Source: an uncultured virus (IMG/VR IMGVR_UViG_3300044986_000857)
Lineage: Duplodnaviria; Heunggongvirae; Uroviricota; Caudoviricetes
Reading direction: 5' to 3' (one strand)
DNA length: 20,000 bases
IMG/VR virus record: IMGVR_UViG_3300044986_000857
Positions 1 through 19,557 of this stretch are shown one piece after another (positions within the stretch are counted from its first letter, which is position 1; each line of letters begins with the position of its first letter). The notes beneath the pieces are model-generated. The model saw nothing but the letters and a program-made list of their open reading frames with translations. It made no database searches and was not told the origin of the DNA. The position numbers were made by a program, and so were the translations under genes.

Positions 1-1
1 C

Positions 2-472
2 GAGGTTTCGGGCAAGATCAGAGGAATCCCGCCCGTTGGCCCCGGCCAGCTTCTTCAGTTTTCGGGCACGCTGTTTCAAAACAGCGGCTACGTCCCCGGC
101 GTCGGCGAGTTCAGCACGCCTTCGGCCTTCGGCTTCTTCCCCGTCCAGAACGCCAACTTTGTTTTCAATCCCGCCGATTTGTTCGGTATTACCAACACCT
201 ACCGAATCCGCGTCGCGGTGCGCGTCGATGGCGCGTTCAACGACGGGCTTCATTGTATGCTGCGTCAAGTAGTGATCGGCGGCGTAGAGAGCGGTGTGCC
301 GGGGCTTCTGGATTTTGGTTCTGGCGTCGCGCAGATTTACCAAGCAGTCAGCAACACGCGCACCATATCAACTACCAACTGGGTTTGGCTTCGCCCGTAT
401 TTCGCTGCGTACAACGGCGGCAACGGTGCGACGTTGCAAGACGTGACAGTCTTTTTGGAAGAATGGTTCTAA
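2..472 (+). CDS. 5'-truncated hypothetical protein, probably the C-terminal beta-rich part of a virion fibre/spike protein
   Basis: Frame is open from position 2 (EVSGKIRGIPPVGPGQ...) through ORF 179..472 to TAA at 472. Gly/aromatic/beta-rich composition, directly upstream of fibre genes. Confidence 0.6.
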   Translation, partial: EVSGKIRGIPPVGPGQLLQFSGTLFQNSGYVPGVGEFSTPSAFGFFPVQNANFVFNPADLFGITNTYRIRVAVRVDGAFNDGLHCMLRQVVIGGVESGVPGLLDFGSGVAQIYQAVSNTRTISTTNWVWLRPYFAAYNGGNGATLQDVTVFLEEWF

Positions 473-473
473 C

Positions 474-914
474 GTGGACAAGCAACAGGTCATCGAAAAG
501 ATCGCACGCGACGTGTTCCCTGACGGACCCACGGTGCAGAAAAGCAACGTGGCGGTCCTCGGCGACGACGTCGTGCTGTTCGACCCGGCGACAAACCCCA
601 CGGAACCCGAGGCCGTCTATGCGTTCTCGCAGACAGACGGGGTGTGCTCGCTGGTCGACGTCCCGAAGCAGACCGCTGAACAATGGCTGACGGGGCAAGG
701 CTACTCGTCGACGCGCTTGGTGACGCTGCTTGATTTGGAAGCGCGGCTGACGGCGGCGCAGAAGTCGTCGCCGAAGCTGGCGGCGACGCGAGCGTGGACA
801 AACGATTTGCTCGCCGCGAGCATGGCCGATGCAGCGCCGCGTTACGTCTGGCTTCCGGCTCCATACTCTTTCTCTGACGTGACAGCAGAAGCATTTGCTG
901 TTTTGACGCAATAA
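474..914 (+). CDS. hypothetical phage protein (146 aa), possibly fibre-associated
   Basis: GTG start 1 nt after the previous stop, protein-like composition, located between fibre-like genes. Confidence 0.7.
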   Translation: MDKQQVIEKIARDVFPDGPTVQKSNVAVLGDDVVLFDPATNPTEPEAVYAFSQTDGVCSLVDVPKQTAEQWLTGQGYSSTRLVTLLDLEARLTAAQKSSPKLAATRAWTNDLLAASMADAAPRYVWLPAPYSFSDVTAEAFAVLTQ

Positions 915-939
915 CGATCGCAACTGAAAGGATCAGGTC

Positions 940-2919
940 ATGGCAACCAAGGCTCTCGTTATCGACGCAGGCACTACCAAGCGCGTGCCGGACGCGGAAA
1001 CCCTTATCGTCGGCGCGGGCATTGACGCTGCGACCCCGACAACGCTTACGATCGGCGGCACGACGGCGACGTCGATCACGCTCGGCAGCGCCACGATCCC
1101 GGTCAGCATCCCCGGCGACGTCAACACCCTCGGCGGCACGACGTTCCAAAGCGACGCCACGTTTGAGGGCAACGTCACCTTCGGCAACGGCCCTGCCGAC
1201 ACGGTGGCGTTCGCGGCGTCCACCACCGTCGTCAGCAACATCGCTTTCGGCGGCGGTTCTCCGACGTACAAGATCACGAATCTTGCGAACGGCACGAATC
1301 CGAACGACGCCGTCAACTTCTCGCAGCTTTCGTCTCTCGTTTCCGGCGTCACGGCGAGCGCCCCGTTGGCGTCGTCGGGCGGCTCGACTCCGAACATCAG
1401 CCTGACCGGCACGGTGGGCGTGGCGAACGGCGGTACGGGCGTCTCGACGGTTCCGACGAACGGCCAACTGCTGATCGGCAACGGCAGCGGCTACTCGGTC
1501 GCTGGCCTGACGGCGGGCAGCGGCGTGACCATCACCCCCGGCGCAGGCACGATCACGATCGCTGCGACCGGTTCGGGTGGCACGATCACCGGGTCGGGCA
1601 CGGCGACGCAGCTTGCCTACTTCACGGGCGCGTCGGCGATCGGGTCGGAGTCCGCGATCGGTAGCGATGCGCTCACTTGGGATTCGACGAACAACGCTCT
1701 GGGTATTCGCGTCGCTTCTGGTTCATTTACGTCGGGTGCTTCTCTCGACGTCGGCAGCGGGCAGATTGCGATCCCTGACGGCACCGCGCTCCTGCCGTCG
1801 ATCGCTTTCCGCGACGACATGAACACGGGCTTCTACTCGCCGACGAACGACGTCATCGGCTTCACGGTGAACGGGGGCGAGATCGCACGCCTGCGCTTGG
1901 AAGGCGTAGGTTCGACGCCCGTGTTTCTGTTGGGTACGACCAGCGTGATCGGAGCGATCACCGTCGACAGCAGCGACCCTTCGGGCACCGCTGGCGTCGG
2001 CATGATTGCCCACGCGAACGCAGGCACCACGATCCAAGAGTCGTATCGTGGAGGTCAGTTTGCGGGTGTTCGTACACGGGGTACCAAAGGCGGGCCGACT
2101 CCGGTGGGCGCAGACGACGGCTTGTGGAACGCGCTTGGCGCGGGCTTCACGTCGGCGAGCGGGTACAACTACGGCGCGCTGATCACGTTCAAGGCCGAAG
2201 AAGCCTACACCGCGTTGGCGTCGGGTGGACGCATTGAGTTCCACACGACGACGAATGGTAGCAGCGGCACCGCGACGCTCGGCGGCGCGACGACGGAACG
2301 GATGCGGATTGCCAACAGCGGCCACGTCGGCATCGGCACCACGAACGTCAGCGGGCACCTGTTCAACATCGGTTCTGGGGCGAACGCAAACTTCGCCGTC
2401 GCCAGCGGCGGTCGCATCCACACCTACGGCGGTGCGGCACCTACGGACGGTCAAGTTCTCATCGGCAATACGGCAAACGGTCGCTTTGAAGCGGCCTCGC
2501 TGACAGCGGGCAGCGGTATCACGATCACCCCCGGCGCGGGAGCGATCACGATCGCCGCAACGGCGGGGACGGACTACTCCGTCGTCACCCTCACCACGGC
2601 GCAGCCCGCGAACACCGCCGTCACCGTGGCGGGCGCGGCGGCGATTGCGACGGCGGCTTCGACGTCGCGCGTGGCGGGCATCGTCACGGCGACGAACACG
2701 GTGAAGGTGCTCGGCATCTGCACCTGCATCGTCGAAGGCGTGTTGTCGATCGCTGCGGGCGACGTCGTCTATCTGTCAGCAGCTACCGCAGGGCGTGTCA
2801 CGAACGTCGCTCCGTCGACGGCGACGCAAGTGGTCGCTGAACTCGGCATCGCGACGGCGGCATCGTCGGGCGGCACCGTCGCGGTGCTTTGGCAGCCGAA
2901 GTCGATCGTCGTCCTCTGA
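940..2919 (+). CDS. fibre/spike (receptor-binding) protein, 659 aa
   Basis: RBS-like GAAAGGA upstream. Gly/Thr/Ala/Ser-rich, with fibre-type motifs KITNLANGTNPNDAVNFSQL (trimeric-adhesin neck-like), GTVGVANGGTG, GQLLIGN and ERMRIANSGHVGIGTT. C-terminal AGDVVYLS..AGRVTNVAP module. Confidence 0.85.
   Translation: MATKALVIDAGTTKRVPDAETLIVGAGIDAATPTTLTIGGTTATSITLGSATIPVSIPGDVNTLGGTTFQSDATFEGNVTFGNGPADTVAFAASTTVVSNIAFGGGSPTYKITNLANGTNPNDAVNFSQLSSLVSGVTASAPLASSGGSTPNISLTGTVGVANGGTGVSTVPTNGQLLIGNGSGYSVAGLTAGSGVTITPGAGTITIAATGSGGTITGSGTATQLAYFTGASAIGSESAIGSDALTWDSTNNALGIRVASGSFTSGASLDVGSGQIAIPDGTALLPSIAFRDDMNTGFYSPTNDVIGFTVNGGEIARLRLEGVGSTPVFLLGTTSVIGAITVDSSDPSGTAGVGMIAHANAGTTIQESYRGGQFAGVRTRGTKGGPTPVGADDGLWNALGAGFTSASGYNYGALITFKAEEAYTALASGGRIEFHTTTNGSSGTATLGGATTERMRIANSGHVGIGTTNVSGHLFNIGSGANANFAVASGGRIHTYGGAAPTDGQVLIGNTANGRFEAASLTAGSGITITPGAGAITIAATAGTDYSVVTLTTAQPANTAVTVAGAAAIATAASTSRVAGIVTATNTVKVLGICTCIVEGVLSIAAGDVVYLSAATAGRVTNVAPSTATQVVAELGIATAASSGGTVAVLWQPKSIVVL
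1453..1572 (+). repeat. intragenic ~40-aa repeat, copy 1 (copy 2 at 2440-2568)
   Basis: PTNGQLLIGNGSGYSVAGLTAGSGVTITPGAGTITIAATG versus PTDGQVLIGNTANGRFEAASLTAGSGITITPGAGAITIAATAG. Confidence 0.9.
2440..2568 (+). repeat. intragenic ~40-aa repeat, copy 2
   Basis: Similar to 1453-1572 at protein and DNA level (shared atcacccccggcgc and cgatcacgatcgc). Confidence 0.9.
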
Positions 2920-2941
2920 TAAACAGCAAGGGAACCCCGGC

Positions 2942-3700
2942 ATGCAAAACTGGAACAATCAGATCCGCAAGCAGCTGAACAACCTGCCGGGGTTCCCACC
3001 TGTTCCGACGGGAACGCCGCCGGGCACGCCATCGACACCCTACGAGTGGATTCTTGGCGATTGGATCGACGAGTGTCGCGTACGGCCGGGCGTGAGCGTG
3101 CTTGGCGCGTTGCCAACGACGGGCAACGAAGTGGGCGACGTTCGTTTCGTTGTCGGCCTCGGTGCGTGGTACTGGTGGGACGGCGCGGCATGGCAACTGG
3201 TGGCAGGAAACGGCGCGGTGGACAGCGTCACAGCCAGCGCGCCTCTTTCGTCGTCCGGCGGCGGAAACCCGGACATCAGCTTCCCGTCGTGGCCCGCGAA
3301 TGCTTCAGGCGCGTTGACGAACGACGGCGCAGGCAATCTTTCGTGGGCTGCGCCGGGCGGGACGCAGTTTGTTACGTTTCCGAGCACTGTAAGTTCGTCG
3401 TCCACCTTGCTTGTTGAGGCCGGTTCCGTAAAACTACCATTTGTAGTTTCAGCGGGAGCGGTTGGCTGCGAGTGTGCAGTTTTCTCAACAAGTCTAACAA
3501 GGGCTAGAGTTATCGCTTGGAATCTTGTCGGTAGTCAGATTGGTTCTTTTGTAGAAGCTGCGGCAACGACAGGATTGAGGATAGTTACGCCAGTATTTTG
3601 GCCTTCAGCTTTTACAGGGTGGGCAAGAATCACTATTGATCAGATACACACGCCTACCGCCGCTGTCTCTTTGCGCGGCGTATTTTTTGTAGAATCTTGA
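2942..3700 (+). CDS. second fibre/spike-like protein (252 aa) with a low-GC C-terminal domain
   Basis: ATG at 2942 within ORF 2795..3700. Contains LPTTGNEVGD..YWWDGAAW and LTNDGAGNLSW fibre-type motifs and shares VTASAPLxSSGG with the 940..2919 protein. Confidence 0.75.
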   Translation: MQNWNNQIRKQLNNLPGFPPVPTGTPPGTPSTPYEWILGDWIDECRVRPGVSVLGALPTTGNEVGDVRFVVGLGAWYWWDGAAWQLVAGNGAVDSVTASAPLSSSGGGNPDISFPSWPANASGALTNDGAGNLSWAAPGGTQFVTFPSTVSSSSTLLVEAGSVKLPFVVSAGAVGCECAVFSTSLTRARVIAWNLVGSQIGSFVEAAATTGLRIVTPVFWPSAFTGWARITIDQIHTPTAAVSLRGVFFVES

Positions 3701-3739
3701 TGGCTTTTAGTTCTTTCATAGTGAGGTGCCGCCCGAGCA

Positions 3740-3768
3740 GTAGCAAGCCCGCGCGCTAGCATGCCGCC
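3740..3768 (+). promoter_or_regulatory. conserved putative leaderless late promoter, copy 1
   Basis: GTAGC-N12-TAGCAT-N6-ATG(3769); no Shine-Dalgarno. Confidence 0.7.
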
Positions 3769-4424
<656 letters not shown>

Positions 4425-4428
<4 letters not shown>

Positions 4429-4628
4429 AGCAGAAGGTCAAGGTCGAGATCACGGTGTCTTTCGACGACGCGACGATGCAGCCCGACGTTGACGAAGCGC
4501 TTGTCGACGCCATCGCGGGCCTGCGCCGGATGCTGGCCCTGCTGCCAGCGGTCAAGGGCAAGACGACGAGAGGCAAGCAAGTGGCGTTCAAGATCGTCGA
4601 CGTCCAGCTGCCCAACGAGAAGTGGTGA
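4425..4628 (+). CDS. hypothetical protein (67 aa, MKQKVKVEITVSF...)
   Basis: ATGA overlap with the lysozyme stop; GAGGAA upstream. Confidence 0.7.
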
Positions 4629-4629
4629 C

Positions 4630-4658
4630 GTAGCAAGCCGATACGGTAGCTTTGTGGC
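4630..4658 (+). promoter_or_regulatory. conserved putative leaderless late promoter, copy 2
   Basis: GTAGC-N12-TAGCTT-N6-ATG(4659). Confidence 0.7.
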
Positions 4659-5162
4659 ATGAGCGACCGCCCCTACCGCGTTGGCATGGCCCGCCCTGTC
4701 CAGCGTTACATCGAGCCGACGGAAATCTACGAAGACCTCAAGCGTGGTCGGTCGACGACCATGCCTGACAACTTCGGGTACACGTGGACCCCGGTGAACG
4801 GGCTGGGGGGCGTCAACGGCGTCGGGTCGCTGCAAGAAGACCTGCTTGAGTTTGGGCAGGGTCTCTTGGAGGCCGGCGCGGGCGCGGCAAAGGAAAAGGC
4901 CAAGGAAGGCGTCGTTGACTTCATCAAGTCGACGCCCGGCAAGAAGCTGCTCGACGCTGTTGAAAGCAGCGCGCGTGCTGGCGTCGTCAAGGAAGTCAAG
5001 AAGAACGCGCCGAACCTGATGCTGTTCGCAGTCGCGGGCGGGGCCATCGGCGGCGCGCTCTCGGCGAAGCTCGGCAAGACCGGCACCGTGCTCGCCATCG
5101 GGCTTGCGGTGTGGTCGGGCTGGCAGCTGATGAACCCGGGCGACGCGCCCAAGAAGAAGTGA
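4659..5162 (+). CDS. putative virion membrane protein (167 aa; two C-terminal hydrophobic segments; VNGLG/VNGVG motifs)
   Basis: Hydrophobic segments LMLFAVAGGAIGGAL and VLAIGLAVWSGWQLM, then PKKK. Confidence 0.8.
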   Translation: MSDRPYRVGMARPVQRYIEPTEIYEDLKRGRSTTMPDNFGYTWTPVNGLGGVNGVGSLQEDLLEFGQGLLEAGAGAAKEKAKEGVVDFIKSTPGKKLLDAVESSARAGVVKEVKKNAPNLMLFAVAGGAIGGALSAKLGKTGTVLAIGLAVWSGWQLMNPGDAPKKK

Positions 5163-5166
5163 GCGT

Positions 5167-6573
5167 ATGCCCCGCTTCGAACCGCAATACCTGACGGAGC
5201 ATGACGGAACGCGACTGCGCGAGGCGCAGCACGCTCTCGTCAACGCGCGAGGTCACTACCTCGGCGAAGCTGCGTCGTTCGCCGGAACGACTGCGGCACC
5301 GTCGACGTCTGCGGAGAAAAAGGCAATCTTGCGGCAGAACCGGGCGCGGGCGCAGCGCGAGATTGAAAAGCGTATGCCCGGCGCGGTGACGGTCAACGCG
5401 GACGGTTCGCTGCACCTTGTCAATCCGCTGACGCCGATGAACAGGGCGATGGCCGATCTTCTGCGGCCGGCGCATGGCGTGATCGATTCGTCGCCGCTCT
5501 CTGCGGCAGACAAGACGAAGCTGAAAACGCAGCCGGTTACGTTTTTCGTTGATTTGTTTGACCCGGTGCTCGACGGTGTGCGAGACGTGCTCGTTGAAGT
5601 CATGCAGCGCGAGGGGTTCGTCTACGACCTGTCGACGCCGCCATTCATGTTCACGCTCGGGAATCCCGCGTTCAAGAACGTCAACATCCGGCTGTATCAG
5701 CCCGGCGATGACCTGTTTGACGACGAGAGCCGAGGCATCATTCTGCGCGTGCGTATGTTGCTCGCGTACTTCGTTCTGTTCTTTCGCAAGCCCGCCGAGT
5801 TGCAGTTCTTGCTGATTAAAAAAGGGTTGGAGGCTTTGTTTGGCAAGGATGACACGCAGCTGGTGCCTGTCGGACAGGGCGGCGATGGGTCGTCATTCGA
5901 CAAGCCTCGCATCGTGATGTCGATGCCTACGGTGTGGCGTGGCGGGTCGCGCAAAGAGATTCCGGCGGGACCTTACCTTATCAGACGGTACACAGCTTCG
6001 CCCCCGGGCCTTCCGACGCGCCGCGATCTTGACGACGTGACCAAGCTCGTTTGGGAGATTCCGCAGGACAACCGGAAGAACCAGACCAGATCGTTCGTGC
6101 AGCTGACGCAAGCTGCATGGGATCAATGGCGGCGACCACGCGCCGGCCTTATCAACGCCCGTCTCGACGAAGGCCGCCCCATCAACGGCCTCGGCAGTCT
6201 CGGCATCAGCCCGGTAGCGGCGGCGGCAAAGGGCACGGCGGTCAAAGTGGCCGTCGATACAGGCACCGCAGCGGGCGGGGGTCAAGCGGCTGTGGCGGCC
6301 ATTTGGACGTGGCTCGGTAACAACATCGTGGGTATCATCGGCGCTGTCGGCGGGGCGATTGCTGGCATCATCGTCGCCGTCAATCAGCCGGCCGTCGCCG
6401 CCGAAGAAGCGCGCGAAGCAGAAGCGAAAGCGCGCGAAGAAGAGGCGAAGACGCGCGGCGCGGGCGAAGGCTCGTTGCAGTCGCAAAGCGCAAGTGGCGG
6501 TGTGTCGCCGCTTTTGATCGGTGGCGCGGTCCTCGCCGCGCTCTTCATCTTGAGGAAAGGCAGCAAGGCATGA
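5167..6573 (+). CDS. putative virion membrane protein (468 aa; INGLG motif, internal hydrophobic segment, coiled coil, C-terminal TM)
   Basis: Long ORF in operon; C-terminus PLLIGGAVLAALFILRKGSKA. Confidence 0.8.
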   Translation: MPRFEPQYLTEHDGTRLREAQHALVNARGHYLGEAASFAGTTAAPSTSAEKKAILRQNRARAQREIEKRMPGAVTVNADGSLHLVNPLTPMNRAMADLLRPAHGVIDSSPLSAADKTKLKTQPVTFFVDLFDPVLDGVRDVLVEVMQREGFVYDLSTPPFMFTLGNPAFKNVNIRLYQPGDDLFDDESRGIILRVRMLLAYFVLFFRKPAELQFLLIKKGLEALFGKDDTQLVPVGQGGDGSSFDKPRIVMSMPTVWRGGSRKEIPAGPYLIRRYTASPPGLPTRRDLDDVTKLVWEIPQDNRKNQTRSFVQLTQAAWDQWRRPRAGLINARLDEGRPINGLGSLGISPVAAAAKGTAVKVAVDTGTAAGGGQAAVAAIWTWLGNNIVGIIGAVGGAIAGIIVAVNQPAVAAEEAREAEAKAREEEAKTRGAGEGSLQSQSASGGVSPLLIGGAVLAALFILRKGSKA

Positions 6574-7112
6574 CGTACGTTCTTGGTACTCTTACGCAGG
6601 CAAACGGGCTTGGCGCTGTGCCCCAGACGGTCGCTGGCGCTGTGCAGGGCGCGGGTTTGCCGTTTGAGACTGTTTTTAGGACTGCGGCAAAGGCTTTGAT
6701 CGCTGCAACCCCTGACATTCCTGACAGGAAGGTCAGAAACGCCATTCGTTATGGCGACCCGGAGATCAGCGTCGAGCGAGCAAACGCAAGAGCGCTCAAA
6801 GGCGAGTACATTCAACCGTACAAGGCTTTCAGAGACGCAGCAGCGAGCGCGATGGGTGCTCTCGGGTACAAGGAAGGCGCGGGCTTTCGCAACATGCGAA
6901 CGCAAGCTCTCGACGCCTACATGAACAGCTTGATCCAGAGCGTGCGCGCGGAGTTGCGCGCGACGGGGCTTGTGGTGTCGTCAAAGCAAGACTCGTCTGA
7001 CAAGCTTAAGAAGGAGTCTGACGATACGCCCGCCGACAACACGCTGCTCTACGTCGCTGGCGCGGCGGCGGTCGCCCTCGTTGCGTTCGGCGCGATGCGG
7101 AGGAAGGCGTGA
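6570..7112 (+). CDS. putative virion membrane protein (180 aa; ANGLG near N-terminus, C-terminal TM)
   Basis: ATGA coupling; C-terminus LLYVAGAAAVALVAFGAMRRKA. Confidence 0.8.
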   Translation: MTYVLGTLTQANGLGAVPQTVAGAVQGAGLPFETVFRTAAKALIAATPDIPDRKVRNAIRYGDPEISVERANARALKGEYIQPYKAFRDAAASAMGALGYKEGAGFRNMRTQALDAYMNSLIQSVRAELRATGLVVSSKQDSSDKLKKESDDTPADNTLLYVAGAAAVALVAFGAMRRKA

Positions 7113-7678
7113 CGTACGTGATCGTCAGCAGCGGGCACCTTCGCGGGCTGCACGGCCTCGGCACGGTGGAGCTTCCGCCCGACCGTGCCGCGTACTTGGA
7201 GCAGATGAAGCCCATCATCGACGACGCGCAAAAGAAGGTCGACGCGATGCTCGCGGGCGACTTTTCGTGGATGAACGTCGAGTCGACGCTGTTGCGGTCG
7301 ACGCGCAGCATCAAGGCAGCCGCGCGAGACATCCTTCTGCAAAAGAAACAAAGGCTTGCCATCACGCTTCCTAGCTTGGAAGAAGCGTTGCGAGATCCAA
7401 ACAGGAAGCTGTCAGAGATCGCAGAGACGATGGAATCTCTGTTTGGCGACTTTGATCAAGAGCTTGCGCGCGTTGCGGCGATGCAGAACATCACGCTGGC
7501 GACCGGCGCAAAGACGGCGTTTCGAAAAGCCGTTCGCGCGGCGTTTGACATGGCCAGAACGGTAGTGCGAGAAGGCGCGAAGGCTGTCGGCGACGAGTTG
7601 GCGGAATCTCCCGTCTCAACGGCTTTGATTCTTGGTGCTGTCGGCGTTGGTCTTTTCCTCTGGGTCAAGAACCGCTAA
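7109..7678 (+). CDS. putative virion membrane protein (189 aa; LRGLHGLG near N-terminus, helical body, C-terminal TM)
   Basis: GTGA coupling; N-terminus MTYV as in the previous gene; C-terminus ALILGAVGVGLFLWVKNR. Confidence 0.8.
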   Translation: MTYVIVSSGHLRGLHGLGTVELPPDRAAYLEQMKPIIDDAQKKVDAMLAGDFSWMNVESTLLRSTRSIKAAARDILLQKKQRLAITLPSLEEALRDPNRKLSEIAETMESLFGDFDQELARVAAMQNITLATGAKTAFRKAVRAAFDMARTVVREGAKAVGDELAESPVSTALILGAVGVGLFLWVKNR

Positions 7679-7687
7679 AGGATCGCG

Positions 7688-8026
7688 ATGCGCTTTTTCT
7701 TGAACCCGATCCAGTTCAATGCTTCCGCCAACGCCGCTGGCATCGCGTGGGCACAAGCGCGTCTGCTCTACGCCGATGCCGGCAACGCGCTCGACGGGTT
7801 GACGTCGACGCAGATCGCGCAAGGCGCATCTCGCCCCTTGCCGCCGCGTCCGATTCCGGCTTCGGCGCGTAACCCGCTGCGTGCAGCGTTGGAACGGCAG
7901 AACGCCGATCGCGCCGCCGCCGTCGAGGTGCAGATCCTCGACAACGTCTTCGTGACGTTCTGCGCGGGCGTGATTGCCGACGTGCGGATCGTCGCACCCG
8001 CTCCTTCCGCTCCCGCTCCCGTTTGA
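7688..8026 (+). CDS. hypothetical protein (112 aa)
   Basis: AAAGGA upstream; fills the operon gap. Confidence 0.7.
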   Translation: MRFFLNPIQFNASANAAGIAWAQARLLYADAGNALDGLTSTQIAQGASRPLPPRPIPASARNPLRAALERQNADRAAAVEVQILDNVFVTFCAGVIADVRIVAPAPSAPAPV

Positions 8027-8034
8027 GGAACACC

Positions 8035-8298
8035 ATGCCCGCCCAAGCCAAAAAGCAGATCATTTCTCACGTTGTCGCATTCATCCTCGGCCTCGTCGGC
8101 GGCTTCGTCGGCAAGGATCTGTCGCCGTTGCAGAAGCCCGTCGAAACCGTCGTGGGCCACGCCGTCGACGCCGTGGAGCAGGCCGCAGAGAAGCCAGCAA
8201 AGAAGCCCGCGCCGGCTCCCGCGCCGGCTGCCGTTCGGTCTGTCGACGCCGGCCCGCCGCCCGCGCCGCTCGGCGACCCGGCTGCGAGCCACCCGTGA
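8035..8298 (+). CDS. small membrane protein (87 aa; N-terminal TM, Pro/Ala-rich tail)
   Basis: GAGGAA RBS then ATG at 8035; hydrophobic IISHVVAFILGLVGGFVG. Confidence 0.7.
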   Translation: MPAQAKKQIISHVVAFILGLVGGFVGKDLSPLQKPVETVVGHAVDAVEQAAEKPAKKPAPAPAPAAVRSVDAGPPPAPLGDPAASHP

Positions 8299-8483
8299 GC
8301 TATCACGCACGCCGGCAAGTCTCGGGCTTCTCCAACGACGCCAAGAAGGCGATCACGGAGAACCCCGACTACTTCGTCTGGTGGTACACGGTCAAAAGCG
8401 TCGGGCTAGGCATCGTCGCCGCCTACGCCGCCTACCTGCTTGGGCGCGAGCACGGGCGCGAGAGGAGAAAAAATGGCTACTGA
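8295..8483 (+). CDS. small membrane protein (62 aa)
   Basis: GTGA overlap; TM VGLGIVAAYAAYLLG followed by a basic tail. Confidence 0.65.
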   Translation: MSYHARRQVSGFSNDAKKAITENPDYFVWWYTVKSVGLGIVAAYAAYLLGREHGRERRKNGY

Positions 8484-8736
8484 GAATCTGTTTTTGAAAG
8501 TGACGGAAGCGCAGGCGATTCTCGCCAGCAACCCCGACACAGAACCCACCATCACGTTCGTTCACAACGGGCGCACGCTTCAAGCGGAACGGCGCTTTCT
8601 ACAGGCAGTCGCGCGCCAGACCTTGAACGACACGGGCATCGTCCCTGTCGTCGTCAAGGAAGATCTATCCGGCCCGCCGTGGCTTCTTATTGCTGGGGGT
8701 CTTTTGATCCTCGGTCTTCTGACGCGACGCAGGTAA
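8473..8736 (+). CDS. small protein with C-terminal TM (87 aa)
   Basis: GAGGAG RBS, ATG at 8473; C-terminus WLLIAGGLLILGLLTRRR. Confidence 0.75.
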   Translation: MATENLFLKVTEAQAILASNPDTEPTITFVHNGRTLQAERRFLQAVARQTLNDTGIVPVVVKEDLSGPPWLLIAGGLLILGLLTRRR

Positions 8737-9037
8737 GGGGCCGGCGCGCGCTCTTGAGCAGCTGCCGGCCCTTCGGCGTGAGCTTGCACATCGTCTTGCG
8801 GTGATCGAAGCGGTGCCTGCTCCGCTCGATGTACCCGCCCGTCTGCATCGCGTGCAGGTACGGCGTCAGCGTCCCCACGCTCGGCAAGTCGAGCGCAGCG
8901 AGCACTTCCAGCGTCGATAGCTCCCCGGGCGTCTGCAACGCCAGCAGGACCGCCAACGACAGCGGGTGCAAGGTCTCGACGCCTTGCGTACGGGGCGCGA
9001 GCCCCGCAATCAGCTTCGCGGCTTCGGCGGGTGTCAT
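8687..9037 (-). CDS. MarR-like winged-helix DNA-binding protein
   Basis: LAVLLAL..GELSTLEVLAALDL helix-turn-helix region, then GYIERSRHRFDHRKTMCKLTPKGRQLL (MarR wing pattern D-x-R..LTxxG). Confidence 0.75.
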   Translation of the reverse strand: MTPAEAAKLIAGLAPRTQGVETLHPLSLAVLLALQTPGELSTLEVLAALDLPSVGTLTPYLHAMQTGGYIERSRHRFDHRKTMCKLTPKGRQLLKSARRPLTCVASEDRGSKDPQQ

Positions 9038-9468
9038 CGGAACCGGCGCTTCTGCGCGGTCTTCCGTCGGTCGGCGAGCGCGGACCTACGCACGTACCCG
9101 GCGACCCGGGCGTGAACCGCGCGCAGGACTTCGTCGTCCTGCACCTCACCGGATAGGATTCTTTCGACGTCCACTAGTAACGCGACCACCGCCCGGTTGT
9201 TCAGAAGGTTCTGGTCGCGCGCGTCCTTGCGGGCTTTCTCCAAGAGCTTGCCCTGCTCTTGGTACTGCTTGCGCAGCTTGTCGCGGGCCTTGCGCGCGTC
9301 GTCGACGGCGGTTGACAGCGCATAGATGCCTCGCGCCTCGGAAGGCCCTATCTCGACGGTGGCTTTCTTCTTCGTCTTCAACTCGACGCGGGCCTTGGCG
9401 AGCATCACTCGGAGCGCTTCGGGCAGCGGAAGCTCGACGTTGACGTTCTCGACAGGTTTTTCGGCCAT
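9034..9468 (-). CDS. hypothetical coiled-coil protein (144 aa, MAEKPVENV...)
   Basis: ATG at 9468 within ORF 9034..9552; ATGA-coupled to the MarR-like gene. Confidence 0.7.
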   Translation of the reverse strand: MAEKPVENVNVELPLPEALRVMLAKARVELKTKKKATVEIGPSEARGIYALSTAVDDARKARDKLRKQYQEQGKLLEKARKDARDQNLLNNRAVVALLVDVERILSGEVQDDEVLRAVHARVAGYVRRSALADRRKTAQKRRFR

Positions 9469-9474
9469 GCGGCC

Positions 9475-9507
9475 GTGTAGCAAACCACGCCGCGCTACAC
9501 TAGGGGC
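9475..9507. promoter_or_regulatory. divergent promoter element: GTGTAGC-N12-GCTACAC inverted repeat (late promoter copy 3)
   Basis: + strand reads GTAGC-N14-TACACT-N6-ATG(9508); - strand reads GTAGC-N14-TACACG-N5-ATG(9468). Confidence 0.65.
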
Positions 9508-9756
9508 ATGGACCCCCGCGAAATCGCTTTGATCCAATCGCAGCGCGGCCAAGCGCTCGCCATCCCCGGTCGTGAAGTGCAGGTCAGCGGTCTGGGCCGC
9601 GCGACCGGCCCCGCTTCGCCGACGCCGCCCCCGCCACCGCCGCCGTCGCCGGGCGATGCGGGCGCGCAGAGCGCGGGCCTGCTTGGCGTGCCGTGGTGGG
9701 CGTGGCTGCTGCTCGGCGTGGGCGCGTACGCGGCGTATTCTCGTCGAGGCCGCTGA
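9508..9756 (+). CDS. small membrane protein (82 aa; VSGLG motif, poly-Pro linker, C-terminal TM)
   Basis: C-terminus VPWWAWLLLGVGAYAAYSRRGR. Confidence 0.8.
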   Translation: MDPREIALIQSQRGQALAIPGREVQVSGLGRATGPASPTPPPPPPPSPGDAGAQSAGLLGVPWWAWLLLGVGAYAAYSRRGR

Positions 9757-10331
9757 TGCCTACGCCCATCGAGATCGCCCGCCGGGAGCTTGACGCTGGT
9801 GTGCGCGAGCCGGCGGCACTCAACAAGTACGCGGGCGGGCGCGACGAGGCGTGGTGCTCGCACTTCGTGTCGTGGTGCTTCGCGCAGGCCGGCTACCCGT
9901 TCGCGTCGTACATCATCCCATCGCCACGACAGCACAACCCGGCGGCCAGCTGCTCTCGCGTCGCGAGCAACATGCGGGACATCGGGCGGCTCTACAAGCC
10001 GGGCGAGATCACGCCGCAGGCGAACGATCTGATCTTCTACAAAAAGGTCGAGGGCGGGCGCTTCGCTGCACCGGGCGTTCTCGGCCTCGACTTCATCCTC
10101 GGGCACATTGGCATCGTCGAGGGCATCGACGGAAACAAGGTCGTCACCATCGAAGGCAACTACAGCAACAAGGTCGCGCGCGTGCGAACGCCTTTGAATA
10201 GCCCAAGCATCGCGTACTATGGCCGACCGTTGACGACCGCAGAGATCGCGGCGATCGGCGGCATTGGCATCGGTACGCTCGCCGTCGTGGGCATCGGCGC
10301 GTATCTGTTCATGCGGGGACGCAGCCGATGA
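9756..10331 (+). CDS. CHAP-domain peptidoglycan amidase/endopeptidase with C-terminal TM anchor (191 aa)
   Basis: TGATG coupling; AWCSHFVSWC (catalytic Cys), GHIGIVE (His), TIEGN; C-terminus IGIGTLAVVGIGAYLFMRGRSR. Confidence 0.9.
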   Translation: MPTPIEIARRELDAGVREPAALNKYAGGRDEAWCSHFVSWCFAQAGYPFASYIIPSPRQHNPAASCSRVASNMRDIGRLYKPGEITPQANDLIFYKKVEGGRFAAPGVLGLDFILGHIGIVEGIDGNKVVTIEGNYSNKVARVRTPLNSPSIAYYGRPLTTAEIAAIGGIGIGTLAVVGIGAYLFMRGRSR

Positions 10332-11011
10332 AGGTTCTACTGTTGGGCGATAGCCACACCGTCGGCCCCTACGGGCAGGCGCTCGCCGGCTTCTTCAAGA
10401 ACGCGGGTGCTTCCGTCACCGTCGTCGCGAACGTCGGTGCGAACGCGGGCAACTACCTGCCCGGGGGCAAGTACGCCTCGCAGGTTCCATCGCGCGTGAC
10501 AAACCTGCTCGGGTTTGACATAGCCATCATCACCCTTGGAACGAACGATGCGGCGGCGAGCGACAGCGTGTTGCCGGCGACCAGCGCCGATCGTTTCAAG
10601 GCTCTGGCGAACGCCCTACCGTCGAGCAACGTCTGGTACGTCGGCCCGCCGGCCTTTTCCGACAGCGCCGCGCGCACCTACAATCCGATCTTCGCCGGCC
10701 CCGGCAAGGACTTGAACACGCGCGCCGCTGCCGTGTTGAACGAAGCCTTCAAGCGTTTCGGAGCAAAGACCATCGACGCGCGGCGCGCGACGCAGCCTTT
10801 CGTCAATGCCAAGGACATTCACCTTGGCAAGCAAGGCGGCGATGCGTGGGCGCGCATGGTGTTCGAAAAGACGATGGCGCATAAGCCGCAAGTGCCGTCG
10901 AGCCAAGACAACGCTCTGACGACGAGCAAGGTTACTTCGTCGCCGCTGGCGTGGGTTGTCGGCGGGCTGTTGCTCTGGTGGGCGTTTGGTCCGCGAAAGA
11001 AGCGTCCATGA
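10328..11011 (+). CDS. SGNH/GDSL-family esterase with C-terminal TM anchor
   Basis: LLLGDSHT, VGAN, LGTNDA and KDIHL blocks; C-terminus PLAWVVGGLLLWWAFGPRKKRP. Confidence 0.85.
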   Translation: MKVLLLGDSHTVGPYGQALAGFFKNAGASVTVVANVGANAGNYLPGGKYASQVPSRVTNLLGFDIAIITLGTNDAAASDSVLPATSADRFKALANALPSSNVWYVGPPAFSDSAARTYNPIFAGPGKDLNTRAAAVLNEAFKRFGAKTIDARRATQPFVNAKDIHLGKQGGDAWARMVFEKTMAHKPQVPSSQDNALTTSKVTSSPLAWVVGGLLLWWAFGPRKKRP

Positions 11012-16183: not shown

Positions 16184-17833
16184 TCAGCGCGGTCCGTGCT
16201 TGCGGTCCCAATCGATCCCGACGCCGGCACCGTATTTTTCCAGCTGCGACGCGATCGAGCGCTTGAAGCGCGGCTCTTGGAGCACCTGTTCGGCGTAGGG
16301 TTCCTCGTTCTTCTCGCCGATGATGTCCTCGGCGAACGCAAGCCACTCGCGCCCCGTCCACGCGAGCCACCACGGCGGCTCCATCTGCATGAGAGCTTGC
16401 ATGACGCGCCGCTGGAACGCGCCCCACTCGGGCTGCAAGAGCACGTCGGCGAGGCTCGTGTACTGCAACAGGTCGACGAGGTAGTTGAGAGCGGCGTGCT
16501 CGCGGTCGATCGGCATCGCCGCGCCCGTGCGGAATCGCGTGTACTTGGGCGGCGGCGGGATGCCGGCGTCGACGTACTTGCCCTTCTTCGCCTCGGCGAT
16601 CACACGCTTGATCGGAATCTCCGGCCCCCACCCCATGCCCTCGGCGAACATGACCCCGACGATGCTCGACGGCGGGATGGGTTGGTGGACCATCGCCTGC
16701 GCCTTGCGCGTCTTGTCGTGCGTCAGGTAGTCGTCGATGTCGACGTCGAGCCACATGTAGGGCACTTCCAGCACGAAGCAGATCGGACGCCCGCCGACCT
16801 TCTGCACCGCGCGCGAGGCGTACATGTCCGTCGCGTTCTGATCGAAGGCCACGAACACGCCCGGCGACGTGCCCTCCCACGCCTTGCGGGATTCATCGAA
16901 CGACAGCCCCGACGTGACGACGGGCCAGAACGCGGCCGTGGACGTGCCGTGGTAGACGAGCGCGAACCGGCCCATCTTCGTCGCGGTCTTCTTGAAGCTC
17001 GGCTCCAAGGGGTCGTCGATGGCGTCGAGCATGAGGGGGTTTTCCTGCGCCTCGTCGCCTTCGTCCCACTCGGGGTTCTTGTACGTCGCCACGCGCGTCG
17101 GCGAGCGAGCGCGCGTCCCTCTCGCGGGTGCGCTCGCCTCTGCGCGGCGCTTCCGTCGCACGGCGTCGGCCACTTCTTCCTTCGACATTCGCATCGCCTC
17201 GCGTTCTGGTCGGCACTTCGGGTAGTCCGCGGGGTCGTCGGAGCGCTTGCGCCCGCACGGCTCGTAGCCGACGACCTCGCCGTCCTCACGGATGGGGCGG
17301 GACAAGTCGACCCAATGCTCGCCGAACCACTTGGTCAGGCCCGTGCGCTCCTTGCGCCCCGCGCCAGCGTATCGCCCGCCGCGCTCCTTGTAGGTCTTCA
17401 CGACCCACCCGCTCGCGTAGGCCGAGGGCCACACGGCGAACTTGCGCTTGGCTTCTGCGACGACGGAGTCGTAGAGGTCTTGGTCGAGGGGTTTGCGCGC
17501 GGGGTTTTCTTCGGGGTTCCTGCGCTTCGCCGCGGCCTCGGCCTCGGCCTGCCGCTCGATGTCGGCGAACATTTGCGCCTCAAAGTCGTCGGGGCGCAGG
17601 CGTTCGCGTCGGTAGAAGGGGTTTGGTTCCGCGGCGATGTCTTCCAAGAGCGCCGCGCGCTCGCGGTAGGCGGCGGCGGCTTCGTCGCCCAGCCGCTCGG
17701 CGCGGTTCCGCAACTCCCGCGCGACCCGCAAGAGCGTTTCCTGCTCGTCGCCGCCCATGCCGGAAATCGCGTAGGTGTTGTAGGACTCTTCCAGAAGCCG
17801 CAGAGCGTCGGCGTCACCTTGTTTGCGTGCCAT
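16184..17833 (-). CDS. multidomain protein (549 aa): helical N-terminus, DUF5872-like domain, ADP-ribosyltransferase-fold (HGT-type) domain
   Basis: AKRKFAVWPSAYASGWVVKTYKERGGRY..GLTKWFGEHWVD..CGR..YPKCRP (DUF5872-like); VYHGTS..GL..GVFVA..IPPSSI (ART/Tpt1-like fold). Confidence 0.7.
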   Translation of the reverse strand: MARKQGDADALRLLEESYNTYAISGMGGDEQETLLRVARELRNRAERLGDEAAAAYRERAALLEDIAAEPNPFYRRERLRPDDFEAQMFADIERQAEAEAAAKRRNPEENPARKPLDQDLYDSVVAEAKRKFAVWPSAYASGWVVKTYKERGGRYAGAGRKERTGLTKWFGEHWVDLSRPIREDGEVVGYEPCGRKRSDDPADYPKCRPEREAMRMSKEEVADAVRRKRRAEASAPARGTRARSPTRVATYKNPEWDEGDEAQENPLMLDAIDDPLEPSFKKTATKMGRFALVYHGTSTAAFWPVVTSGLSFDESRKAWEGTSPGVFVAFDQNATDMYASRAVQKVGGRPICFVLEVPYMWLDVDIDDYLTHDKTRKAQAMVHQPIPPSSIVGVMFAEGMGWGPEIPIKRVIAEAKKGKYVDAGIPPPPKYTRFRTGAAMPIDREHAALNYLVDLLQYTSLADVLLQPEWGAFQRRVMQALMQMEPPWWLAWTGREWLAFAEDIIGEKNEEPYAEQVLQEPRFKRSIASQLEKYGAGVGIDWDRKHGPR

Positions 17834-17865: not shown

Positions 17866-19557
17866 TCAGCGGCGTCGGCGCGGGTTGGGCAGCGGCTCGC
17901 GAACGCGCGTCACGGGCCAGACCTGTTCGCGCGCCAGCGGGCGGTAGGTCCAGATGACGCTGTCGGTGTTGAGGTCTTCCCAATCGTAGTCGCGGACGGC
18001 TTCTTTGACGCCTTCTAGGTCCAGCGTGTCTTTGCCGAACATCGCCTGCGCGGCTTCGTCGGCGACGAAGGGGTCGCGGTAGACCGCGCCGTCGTAACCC
18101 AGCGTCTCCAACGCGCGCTTGAAGGCCGGCGTCTCGACGAACGCGAAGGTGTCGGCTGCCATCGCAAGCGACACGCGAATCTGCTCGTCTCGGTCGTCGA
18201 ACTCCGCGCCGTCCCAGATGTCGAGGTACTGCGCCAACGGAAGCTGATCGAAAGACAGGCCCAGCGCCACGCCCGGCTCGTCCTCGTCGACTTCGTGCGC
18301 TTCCTTGATCTGGTACGAGAACGCCGGCAGCTTCATCAGGTTGCGCGTGATGGCCTTTTTCGGTTCGTGCCACGAAGGAAGCGCCTTCGCGTTTTCGCGG
18401 TTCGACAAGTGCCGGAGAATCTTCACCGTCTCGTCGAACGGAGTCTTGCCGTCCCAATACCCAACCAACGTCAGCACGTCGTAGAAGGTCAGGAAGTGGT
18501 ACTTGATGACGAGCGGGTTCTTCAAGCACAGGTACGCCGCGAAGACGTTGCTCTCGTCGGTGAACCTGCCCTGCTGCGACGAGTAGATGGACGCGACCTC
18601 GGGCGACGTCGTGAAGGAGTCCATGACGAGGCGAGCTTGCAGCGCACCGCCGCCAGCGGTCTGCCCGCGGTAGAACACCTTGGGCGAGCCGTCGGCGTTC
18701 TTGACGTGCTCGCTCGCGTCCGCGAACCACGCGCGGAACTCGGGGCTGGCGGTTTCGGGGTCGAAGGCGGGGTTGCTGCGGCGCATGTTCGGTGTTCCGG
18801 CGTCGTCGACGCTCTTGCGTTGGAAGTACTCGCGAGCCTCTTGCAAATACTTGCGTTCGTATTCTTGCAAGTCCTCGTCGAGCCGACCTTCGTACAGGTC
18901 TAGGGACATTTGGTGTGAAGACAGTTCATCCTCGGCGTCTTTCTGCTGCGCCTCTGCTTCATCGTACATCGCTGTCGTTTCGAGCAGCGTGACGGCGCGT
19001 GTATCGTAGACGGCGATCTCGTAGCTGCCATCCGGCAGCTTCTCAAACGCGCCCGTAACACCCGCCTTGAGCAAGGCTTTGCGCCCCTCCATCGGGCCGA
19101 GAAGAGCGAAGATCGCACCAATCTTTCCGCCGCCGTGCTCGCCTCGGCGCTGTCCGCGTACGTTGTAGATGGTCCCGTTGGCGCTGCGTTGGACTCTCGA
19201 CTCAAACCCGCCCACGCGCACAACGTCTTCCAGCAGGGCGGCCAGATTGTCGCGCAGCCAGCGCGGCGTTCCCATCACCGGGTCATACAAACCCTTGGTC
19301 TTTATCAGCACCTTGTGCTTGGTGGGCCGATTGCCGCCGTACTTCAAGTACCTCTCAGCAATACCCTCGTCGGTTGCGAAGTACACGCCGGGGCCAAGGA
19401 TGCTAGAGAAGCCGCCCCCAGACGCTCCTTCGCCCGTGCCCACATAGCTGACATCCGGCTTGTTGCCGGACCAAGGGCGACCGCAGTTGTACGCGATCAC
19501 CTGTCGGGGCAAAGCCGGGTTTGGTGTGTCTTCCGCCGCGGGATTCTTGCGTGCCAT
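17866..19557 (-). CDS. polyvalent-type protein (563 aa) with two ART-PolyVal-like ADP-ribosyltransferase domains
   Basis: Domain 1: VGTGEGA..GPGVYFATDEGIAERY. Domain 2: SPEFRAWF..NADGSPKVFYRG..FTTSPEVASIY..VFAAYLCLKNPL..LGYDGAVY. Confidence 0.7.
   Translation of the reverse strand: MARKNPAAEDTPNPALPRQVIAYNCGRPWSGNKPDVSYVGTGEGASGGGFSSILGPGVYFATDEGIAERYLKYGGNRPTKHKVLIKTKGLYDPVMGTPRWLRDNLAALLEDVVRVGGFESRVQRSANGTIYNVRGQRRGEHGGGKIGAIFALLGPMEGRKALLKAGVTGAFEKLPDGSYEIAVYDTRAVTLLETTAMYDEAEAQQKDAEDELSSHQMSLDLYEGRLDEDLQEYERKYLQEAREYFQRKSVDDAGTPNMRRSNPAFDPETASPEFRAWFADASEHVKNADGSPKVFYRGQTAGGGALQARLVMDSFTTSPEVASIYSSQQGRFTDESNVFAAYLCLKNPLVIKYHFLTFYDVLTLVGYWDGKTPFDETVKILRHLSNRENAKALPSWHEPKKAITRNLMKLPAFSYQIKEAHEVDEDEPGVALGLSFDQLPLAQYLDIWDGAEFDDRDEQIRVSLAMAADTFAFVETPAFKRALETLGYDGAVYRDPFVADEAAQAMFGKDTLDLEGVKEAVRDYDWEDLNTDSVIWTYRPLAREQVWPVTRVREPLPNPRRRR

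Follow-up and report, generated by a model that had tools for sequence, protein, structure and literature searches.

A conserved leader ending in Gly-Leu-Gly is shared by tail-anchored membrane proteins in the late module of an uncultured phage

A short N-terminal leader common to several unrelated proteins is found among the internal proteins of T4 and the ejection proteins of phiKZ/SPN3US-like phages. The T4 capsid-targeting leader both targets the packaged protein and is removed by the gp21 prohead protease, and T4-type capsid-targeting sites end in Glu. Encapsulin cargo-loading peptides are Gly/Leu-rich (G-S-L-x-I-G-S-L type) and dock cargo inside the shell; they are usually C-terminal, sit on soluble enzymes and stay uncut. 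To our knowledge, sorting or maturation leaders are known from T4-like phages and adenoviruses, but neither from membrane-anchored phage proteins nor in a version with Gly-Leu-Gly at the boundary. We analyzed a 20,000-nucleotide stretch (the window) of a 77,793-bp contig from an uncultured virus (IMG/VR IMGVR_UViG_3300044986_000857), where a motif of the form h-x-G-L-G recurs in membrane proteins of a late gene block. The motif is conserved in homologues, marks a boundary between conserved and variable sequence, is under purifying selection and is linked to C-terminal membrane anchors. In the T4 and phiKZ systems the leader carriers are soluble, whereas here the site is Gly-Leu-Gly and the carriers have membrane anchors. 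The adenovirus protease (AVP) offers a second comparison. According to PMC3386624, it acts at aliphatic-x-Gly-x-Gly sites, before the last Gly, in several virion proteins (pVI, pVII, pVIII, pIIIa, mu and pTP), at terminal and internal positions; the consensus is (M/I/L)XGX-G or (M/I/L)XGG-X, and pVI is a membrane-active protein that lies beneath the capsid.

The proteins that carry the motif, or a weaker form of it, are encoded on the plus strand as follows (lengths in amino acids, aa).

4659..5162, plus strand: membrane protein, 167 aa, with a C-terminal hydrophobic hairpin followed by KKK (alignment A2; hydropathy)
5167..6573, plus strand: 468-aa membrane protein with 16 homologues (alignment A1)
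6570..7112, plus strand: tail-anchored protein, 180 aa, leader MTYVLGTLTQANGLG (6570-6614), C-terminal transmembrane (TM) segment by hydropathy (alignment A6)
7109..7678, plus strand: tail-anchored protein, 189 aa, leader (M)TYVIVSSGHLRGLHGLG (7109-7162), recognized by leader conservation
8295..8483, plus strand: 62-aa membrane protein, leader (M)SYHARRQVSGFS, 78% identical to 61-aa proteins of loci L002, L008 and L010
9508..9756, plus strand: 82-aa membrane protein with a poly-Pro linker and a Trp-rich C-terminal anchor (alignment A7)

Each instance lies where the original prediction, made from the letters of the window, had placed it. VNGLG (4794-4808) and VNGVG (4812-4826) span residues 46-56 of the 167 in the 4659 protein; INGLG (6181-6195), followed by SLG to 6204, spans residues 339-346 of 468 in the 5167 protein; ANGLG (6600-6614) is at residues 11-15 of 180 in the 6570 protein; LHGLG (7148-7162, inside LRGLHGLG) is at residues 14-18 of 189 in the 7109 protein; and VSGLG (9583-9597) is at residues 26-30 of 82 in the 9508 protein. 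The weaker VSGFS of the 8295-8483 gene is at 8319-8333. The carriers are membrane proteins, as had been claimed, and belong to a phage late module that also encodes a C-terminally anchored lysozyme. The claim that the motif is close to the N-terminus in four of the five proteins holds by residue position, though the "leader" of the 4659 protein is about 56 residues long. The description of the carriers as otherwise unrelated largely stands: there is no BLASTP similarity among the five, but the 6570 and 7109 proteins share an MTYV start and the design of their C-terminal anchors.

Motif frequencies were compared with 1000 within-protein shuffles for the membrane-protein block (nine proteins, 1449 aa) and for 24 other window proteins (4831 aa). 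GLG occurs 6 times in the block versus 1.27 expected (reached by 2/1000 shuffles), [NSH]GLG 5 times versus 0.12 (0/1000 shuffles; present in five of the nine proteins) and h-x-G-[LV]-G 8 times versus 0.8 (0/1000 shuffles), whereas GLG is found once versus 3.26 expected in the other 24 proteins; the patterns were picked post hoc, so these figures are not clean P-values, but the contrast is still large. For the strict adenain consensus the block shows no enrichment (6 versus 3.87 expected, reached by 184/1000 shuffles). The five GLG instances are written in different codons (GGGCTGGGG, GGCCTCGGC, GGGCTTGGC, GGCCTCGGC and GGTCTGGGC), which identifies a peptide motif and rejects a DNA repeat. Asn-dependent self-cleavage at N-G was ruled out because the residue before Gly is variable (N, S, H, K, R, G or D).

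Relatives of these proteins are encoded by 15 metagenome loci, four of which (L001, L003, L004 and L005) match the window in gene order across most of the block. The motif is retained wholly or partly in four of the families; in the fifth, that of the 4659 protein, only the second copy is kept. The sharpest boundary is in the 7109 family. Its 18-residue leader, MTYV(I/V)VSSGHLRGL(H/S)GLG, is identical at 16-17 of 18 positions in L001, L003 and L005, whereas identity outside the leader falls to 24/140, 29/148 and 28/150 residues (17-20%), and similarity in the DNA alignment stops immediately 3' of the GLG codons. Codon changes in the leader are 9-10 synonymous versus 1-2 non-synonymous (all pairs that differ; L003 versus L005 is excluded since their leaders are identical). 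The predominance of synonymous changes points to strong selection on the peptide itself.

The 5167 family has 16 database relatives, 15 of which were aligned. Gly341 and Leu345 are nearly invariant and Gly346 is invariant; exact GLG is present in 10 of the 15 homologues, h-x-G-h-[G/S/A] in 13 and the strict adenain form in 6. In the numbering used for protease sites, P4 is aliphatic (I, V or L) in 14/15 and the P2 Gly is nearly invariant. A second L-G, formed by Leu345 and Gly346, follows 1 to 9 residues after the motif, within an otherwise poorly conserved stretch. The 468-aa protein consists of a conserved N-terminal domain, a variable middle, the motif, hydrophobic segments, a charged coil and a terminal TM segment with RKGSKA. 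Its AlphaFold2 (AF2) model places the motif in a low-confidence interhelical loop that precedes the membrane part; the mean predicted local distance difference test score (pLDDT) of 49.5 is too poor for a fold search, and the sequence profile found no match in the PDB. G-L-G is present in 3/3 members of the 9508 family (VSGLG, LRGLG and LRGLG). The 6570 family keeps the Leu of G-L in 7/7, G-L in 6/7 and G-L-G in 3/7. Members of the 4659 family are 84-87% identical, and the second copy (4812-4826) appears as [L/V]-[N/D]-G-V-G in 4/4. VSGFS of the 8295 protein becomes IEGFS in the 61-aa proteins, which read MSYHASPAAPAIEGFS and share their 78% identity with it over the whole length.

The motif is the downstream edge of a larger shared signal, as the distant loci indicate. 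In L002 and L007-L014, other tail-anchored proteins begin MSHYDHVGA, MSHYHHMGA, MSNYVYMGA, MHYDYSPGLGA, MSYHAGAA, MSYASSLGLG and MSHYVYAPAFGA, and a homologue of the 468-aa protein is among these leader-bearing starts. Combined with the window leaders MTYVLGTLTQANGLG, MTYVIVSSGHLRGLHGLG and MSYHARRQVSGFS, they define M-[S/T]-(x)-Y...G-[L/A]-[G/A/S]: Met-Ser/Thr opens the leader, Tyr follows among the first 3-8 residues, and a brief beta-prone segment leads to G-[L/A]-[G/A/S] at about residue 8-30. This type of start is found in 8 of 26 C-terminally anchored proteins versus 1 of 74 others (Fisher P = 6e-5), a count that rests on a post hoc pattern and on crude gene calls whose mis-called starts lead to an undercount. 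The association with anchors spans two related lineages. Shine-Dalgarno (SD)-like sequences back the leader-bearing gene starts; in the window, GAGGAAAGG is SD-like 5' of the 6570 start and the SD GGAGGAAGG lies 5' of the 7109 start.

We favor, at about an even chance of being correct, a leader by which entry-related membrane proteins are recognized in common, for incorporation into the virion, for proteolytic processing or for both. An exchangeable module that is attached to unrelated proteins of the block, stays nearly unchanged while its attached protein drifts to ~18% identity and ends at small residues argues for a sorting signal, and it is probably a processing signal as well. The h-x-G-L-G motif is the C-terminal boundary of a conserved leader on tail-anchored proteins (a hydrophobic C-terminal helix and a short basic tail), and the carriers are encoded in the late module of a probably temperate phage lineage, between fiber genes and membrane-anchored wall-degrading enzymes. 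One common partner may recognize the leader, which would send its carriers to the virion, as residents of an internal membrane beneath the capsid or as entry proteins to be ejected, and a viral or host protease would then probably cleave at G-L-G or immediately past it. The 468-aa protein has this signal internally, in a flexible linker, and a cut there would part the soluble N-terminal domain from the membrane part. Virion location, partner recognition and cleavage go beyond a conserved signal and are what we infer from it. The original prediction had proposed pro-peptides removed by a viral cysteine protease, or a capsid-docking motif; the general form of that proposal is borne out by a leader end that is under far stronger constraint than the rest, as such a signal should look, and its adenain-type form fares worse, as considered below.

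Several observations weigh against a sorting and processing signal. D, N, A or S stands in place of the final Gly in 4/7 of the 6570 family. The first VNGLG of the 4659 family belongs to a variable x-[N/D]-G repeat and is present in 1/4 homologues, and the N-terminal 47 residues, invariant in 4/4, are the most conserved part of that protein, an unexpected pattern if they form a pro-peptide to be discarded. Peptidase-type domains in the scanned window and related-locus proteins were limited to CHAP (9756-10331), M15 (endolysins of L008 and L010) and S74 (a chaperone within a fiber). The motif patterns are post hoc, as stated, and the shared termini could reflect old paralogy among small proteins.

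We consider unlikely an explanation in which the leader is never cut: a permanent structural element of old paralogues, in the form of a short N-terminal strand or beta-hairpin that turns at glycine and either adds as a strand to a capsid, vertex or partner protein or drives oligomerization of the entry or pore apparatus. The leaders are indeed beta-prone (TYVVVSS, SYILGS, SNYVYM) and run into Gly-rich turns, both the start and the anchor design are common to the 6570 and 7109 proteins, the residues after G-L (G, S, A, N or D) are looser than many protease sites, and the invariant N-terminus of the 4659 family is more in keeping with a working domain than with a peptide that is removed. The abrupt fall from near-identity to ~18% exactly at GLG is, however, typical of exchangeable signal modules, and an N-terminal docking strand makes less sense for the 468-aa protein, where the motif is internal to a linker. 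It is decidedly improbable that the carriers are non-virion proteins of the infected-cell membrane, active in lysis control, superinfection exclusion or an assembly platform, with the leader as an insertion signal or a turnover signal for a host protease. Tail-anchored proteins do self-insert into the cell membrane, the wall- and lipid-degrading enzymes at the end of the block could form a lysis cassette, and a regulator pair is embedded in the block. Lacking signal peptides, however, the three C-terminally anchored wall/lipid hydrolases would face the cytoplasm; they fit a virion membrane better than a lysis cassette, and virion-borne entry as with PRD1 P7 is the better fit. The block also comes after the fiber genes, in one transcriptional direction. 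An accident of composition is very improbable indeed. G, L and A are abundant in these Gly-/Leu-rich proteins of a 64% G+C genome, which could yield GLG by chance, and the strict adenain pattern does not stand out from shuffles; the excess of [NSH]GLG in the block against the low count of GLG elsewhere in the window, and the retention of the motif in homologues under purifying selection, already contradict it.

The original prediction read the motifs as maturation sites of a contig-encoded adenain/Ulp1-type (clan CE) cysteine protease in an internal-membrane jelly-roll bacterial virus of the PRD1-adenovirus lineage. We regard this as rather improbable, and quite improbable the fuller picture of a large bacterial internal-membrane virus with a dedicated protease that would mature membrane and entry proteins at adenain-like aliphatic-x-Gly-Leu-Gly sites, cut before the last Gly. 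INGLG and LHGLG fit (M/I/L)xGx-G as it is given in PMC3386624, and the aliphatic P4 and P2 Gly of the 5167 family are a real resemblance to the adenovirus sites. The fit does not extend to VNGLG, VNGVG, ANGLG, VSGLG or VSGFS (two of seven instances fit), the strict form is kept in a minority of 5167 homologues (6/15, as above) and lacks enrichment in the block, and Val at P4 and Ser or Ala at P1' are frequent; adenovirus differs further in that its host is not bacterial. The original prediction called for a search for a jelly-roll major capsid protein, an FtsK/A32-like packaging ATPase and an adenain/Ulp1-like protease. This search drew a blank: no clan-CE peptidase (Peptidase_C5/C48-type or other), double jelly-roll capsid family or FtsK/A32 ATPase turned up in the 32 proteins of the 20-kb window, itself part of the 77.8-kb contig, or in the 65 from related loci. 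The scans covered 32 window, 65 locus and 62 jelly-roll-family proteins with Pfam, 32 window and 28 locus proteins with PHROGs, and 35 proteins with NCBIfam. For now, a Varidnaviria phage with an adenain-type site looks less probable than not. If the fuller picture were true, the PRD1-adenovirus lineage would have its first proteolytic maturation system in a prokaryotic member, and the adenovirus/Polinton-type step would predate eukaryotic viruses.

The favored leader signal holds for internal-membrane and tailed particles alike. A tailed phage whose membrane-active proteins are packaged or ejected has close to an even chance, and an internal-membrane particle has a chance somewhat below even. 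PRD1 P7 and Toil gp23 combine a lysozyme-like domain with a C-terminal transmembrane helix, and Toil also has a CHAP protein; in these tectiviruses, as here, an anchored lysozyme, a CHAP protein and many small late-region membrane proteins go together (PMC5773508). The window has this PRD1-like combination, a virion-type lysozyme with a C-terminal anchor (3769-4428) and a block of small membrane proteins (4659-11011), which counts in favor of the adenain-type proposal. It departs from tectiviruses in its 77.8-kb contig, of which late and early genes fill the 20 kb of the window alone, and in membrane proteins that lack sequence similarity to cultured phages. Tectivirus genomes are ~15-18 kb. 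The terminase, portal and HK97 capsid that the original prediction had named beforehand as signs against it likewise gave no hit among the 32 window and 65 related-locus proteins. At least four large fiber genes per genome and homologues on contigs of 57-142 kb are hints of a tailed phage and fit one at least as well as the lineage that the adenain-type proposal requires. A tailed phage would parallel the T4 capsid-targeting leaders.

No double jelly-roll capsid protein was found among the window proteins. The distant loci L002 (3-5811) and L010 (1-7571) have a run of six unannotated beta-rich proteins (~200-350 aa) upstream of the membrane block, and several of these end in h-x-h-x-G-Y-type strands. 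One of the six belongs to a family of 79 representative clusters without a sequence match in Pfam, PHROG or the PDB. Its 332-aa L002 member is predicted, from 62 sequences of those 79 clusters, to fold as a jelly-roll-like sandwich (pLDDT 78.4; predicted template modeling score, pTM, 0.76), a point in favor of the PRD1-adenovirus lineage. The best VIA match of this model is to a nucleoplasmin-like fold (Z 7.9), and HCIV-1 (Z 7.6), P23-77 VP17 (Z 7.5), PBCV-1 (Z 7.4) and PRD1 P3 (Z 6.5) follow in a list that also holds tailed-phage cement and baseplate proteins. According to the structure-comparison tool, Z below 8 is typical of a merely common fold, and no match of the model reaches 8; matches this low, mixed with non-viral and tailed-phage proteins, count against the lineage assignment. 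Foldseek found nothing in the PDB at E<=0.001 and one unnamed BFVD match. The best look-alike clusters in the Atlas are labeled Uroviricota, which again suits a tailed phage at least as well; the nearest named clusters are the PRD1 P3/P2 families, whose score of only 0.77 makes them no more than a lead, and a second Atlas search with a best score of 0.79 was uninformative. Paralogy among the L002 beta-rich proteins was rejected at hhalign probabilities of 0.3-6.6%.

Relatives of the membrane proteins were absent from 50,697 cultured-phage records, PLSDB plasmids, IMG/VR contigs and 185,579 species genomes. Cultured phages gave no DNA match to the window and no protein match for the 5167, 4659 or jelly-roll-like proteins. 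The portions of the surveyed literature that were available hold nothing comparable on maturation or processing in membrane-containing phages, and the words protease, cleav- and processed do not appear in the main text of a 2019 review of these phages (PMC6356626). A leader common to virion proteins is a known kind of thing; the membrane-anchored carriers, the Gly-Leu-Gly boundary and the uncharacterized lineage are new. The sequence G-L-G-S-L-G-I in the 5167 protein has a possible likeness to an encapsulin cargo peptide. The leader is short and easy to test, and it appears to mark a whole group of entry-type membrane proteins. Should it be cut, it would reveal a new protease specificity and give a handle for finding the protease; should the particle contain an internal membrane, the finding would inform the long-standing question of whether adenovirus/Polinton maturation proteolysis has bacterial roots; and on the most modest reading the leader would still be a practical marker for virion membrane proteins in metagenomes.

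The window, at 64% G+C, reads as a piece of a phage genome. The late block occupies the plus strand from 1 to 11,011, with fibers, lysozyme, membrane proteins, CHAP and SGNH/GDSL enzymes in that order, and hydropathy identifies at least 11 further membrane proteins in 4659-11011 besides the anchored lysozyme. Early-type genes occupy the minus strand from 11 kb on (a Dam methylase, helix-turn-helix (HTH) proteins and large DUF5872/ART-PolyVal proteins). The remaining genes of the late block are as follows.

2..472, plus strand: fiber protein with a C-terminal receptor-binding-type domain; its 5' end is beyond the window, and homologues are fiber-like proteins of 428-912 aa that share this domain only
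Between the 2-472 fiber domain and the further fiber-like proteins, plus strand: 146-aa protein
940..2919, plus strand: fiber/spike protein, 659 aa (Pfam YadA_stalk 5.4e-10; PHROG tail fiber 7e-9)
2942..3700, plus strand: second fiber-like protein, 252 aa (PHROG tail fiber 8.6e-4)
3769..4428, plus strand: lysozyme-like enzyme with a Gly10 linker, a C-terminal membrane anchor and an RNRR tail (PHROG endolysin families 5e-21 to 9e-29; C-terminal TM segment by hydropathy)
4425..4628, plus strand: small conserved soluble protein, 67 aa (81-83% identity in L003, L004 and L005; 59% in L001)
7688..8026, plus strand: conserved 112-aa protein with a C-terminal hydrophobic segment by hydropathy, without the motif (57-64% identity in L001 and L003-L005)
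8035..8298, plus strand: small protein with an N-terminal TM segment by hydropathy and a Pro/Ala-rich tail, without the motif (75-79% identity over 57 aa in L003-L005)
8473..8736, plus strand: 87-aa tail-anchored protein without the motif (C-terminal TM segment plus RRR by hydropathy; SD GAGAGGAG upstream)
8687..9037, minus strand: MarR/winged-helix regulator (Pfam HTH_34 1.6e-4; MarR-type matches in NCBIfam)
9034..9552, minus strand: 172-aa protein, partner of the regulator, inside the late block
9756..10331, plus strand: CHAP-domain cysteine amidase/peptidase with a C-terminal TM segment by hydropathy plus RGRSR (Pfam CHAP 1e-9; PHROG endolysin 2e-10)
10328..11011, plus strand: SGNH/GDSL-type hydrolase with a Trp-rich C-terminal anchor plus PRKKRP (Pfam Lipase_GDSL 5e-6; conserved in L001, L003 and L004)

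The 150-aa fiber domain at 2-472 is joined to widely differing N-terminal parts in proteins P0017-P0027 (428-912 aa in total), which suggests swapping of receptor-binding tips. The N-terminal 140 aa of the 940-2919 fiber are 63% identical to an L003 fiber, and the 2942-3700 protein is 43% identical to the product of L008:5024-5821, which carries Phage_depo_C. The ten consecutive glycines of the lysozyme lie ahead of its anchor, at 4291-4320, and an SD-like GAGGAA is found 5' of the ATG at 4425. L001, L003 and L004 keep the minus-strand pair of regulator and 172-aa gene at the corresponding position; at its 5' end, the 172-aa gene shares 45 bases with the start of the plus-strand 9508-9756 gene. 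The proline run of the 82-aa protein is at 9619-9645, and the CHAP gene has an alternative start at 9693.

The C-termini of ten proteins encoded between 3769 and 11011 are nearly all of one design: Pro/Ser, then 17-22 hydrophobic residues that are often Trp- or Gly-rich, then 2-6 terminal basic residues. The basic ends read RNRR, RKGSKA, RRKA, KNR, RRR, RRGR, RGRSR and PRKKRP. If the proteins are located in a virion membrane, one might speculate that these tails face the packaged DNA. The idea of a C-terminal sorting signal was dropped: none of the 35 proteins compared with NCBIfam matched a curated C-terminal sorting domain (PEP-CTERM, GlyGly-CTERM, LPXTG and similar), and the N-termini are not hydrophobic by hydropathy.

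In the distant lineage, a protein with the mycobacteriophage GP88 domain (PF17338) is always encoded just upstream of the homologue of the 468-aa protein; it is absent from the lineage of the window.

L010:8088-9548, L002:7902-9641, L011:2824-4590 and L014:3-1154: GP88-domain proteins, each upstream of the 468-aa homologue

This protein was dropped as a clue to the virion since many tailed phages encode it outside their structural regions. Another distant homologue of the 468-aa protein (L015:2-694, minus strand) adjoins an ABC-transporter solute-binding gene, SBP_bac_5 (L015:715-2976, plus strand), possibly at a prophage border or in a chromosomal copy. On the early strand of the window, two large proteins of 549 aa (16184-17833, minus strand) and 563 aa (17866-19557, minus strand) have DUF5872 and an ART-PolyVal domain. 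ART-PolyVal is the ADP-ribosyltransferase of polyvalent proteins, and domains of this sort typically mark proteins carried by mobile elements into a new host. Pelagibacter and Roseobacter podophages encode weak relatives of the DUF5872 part.

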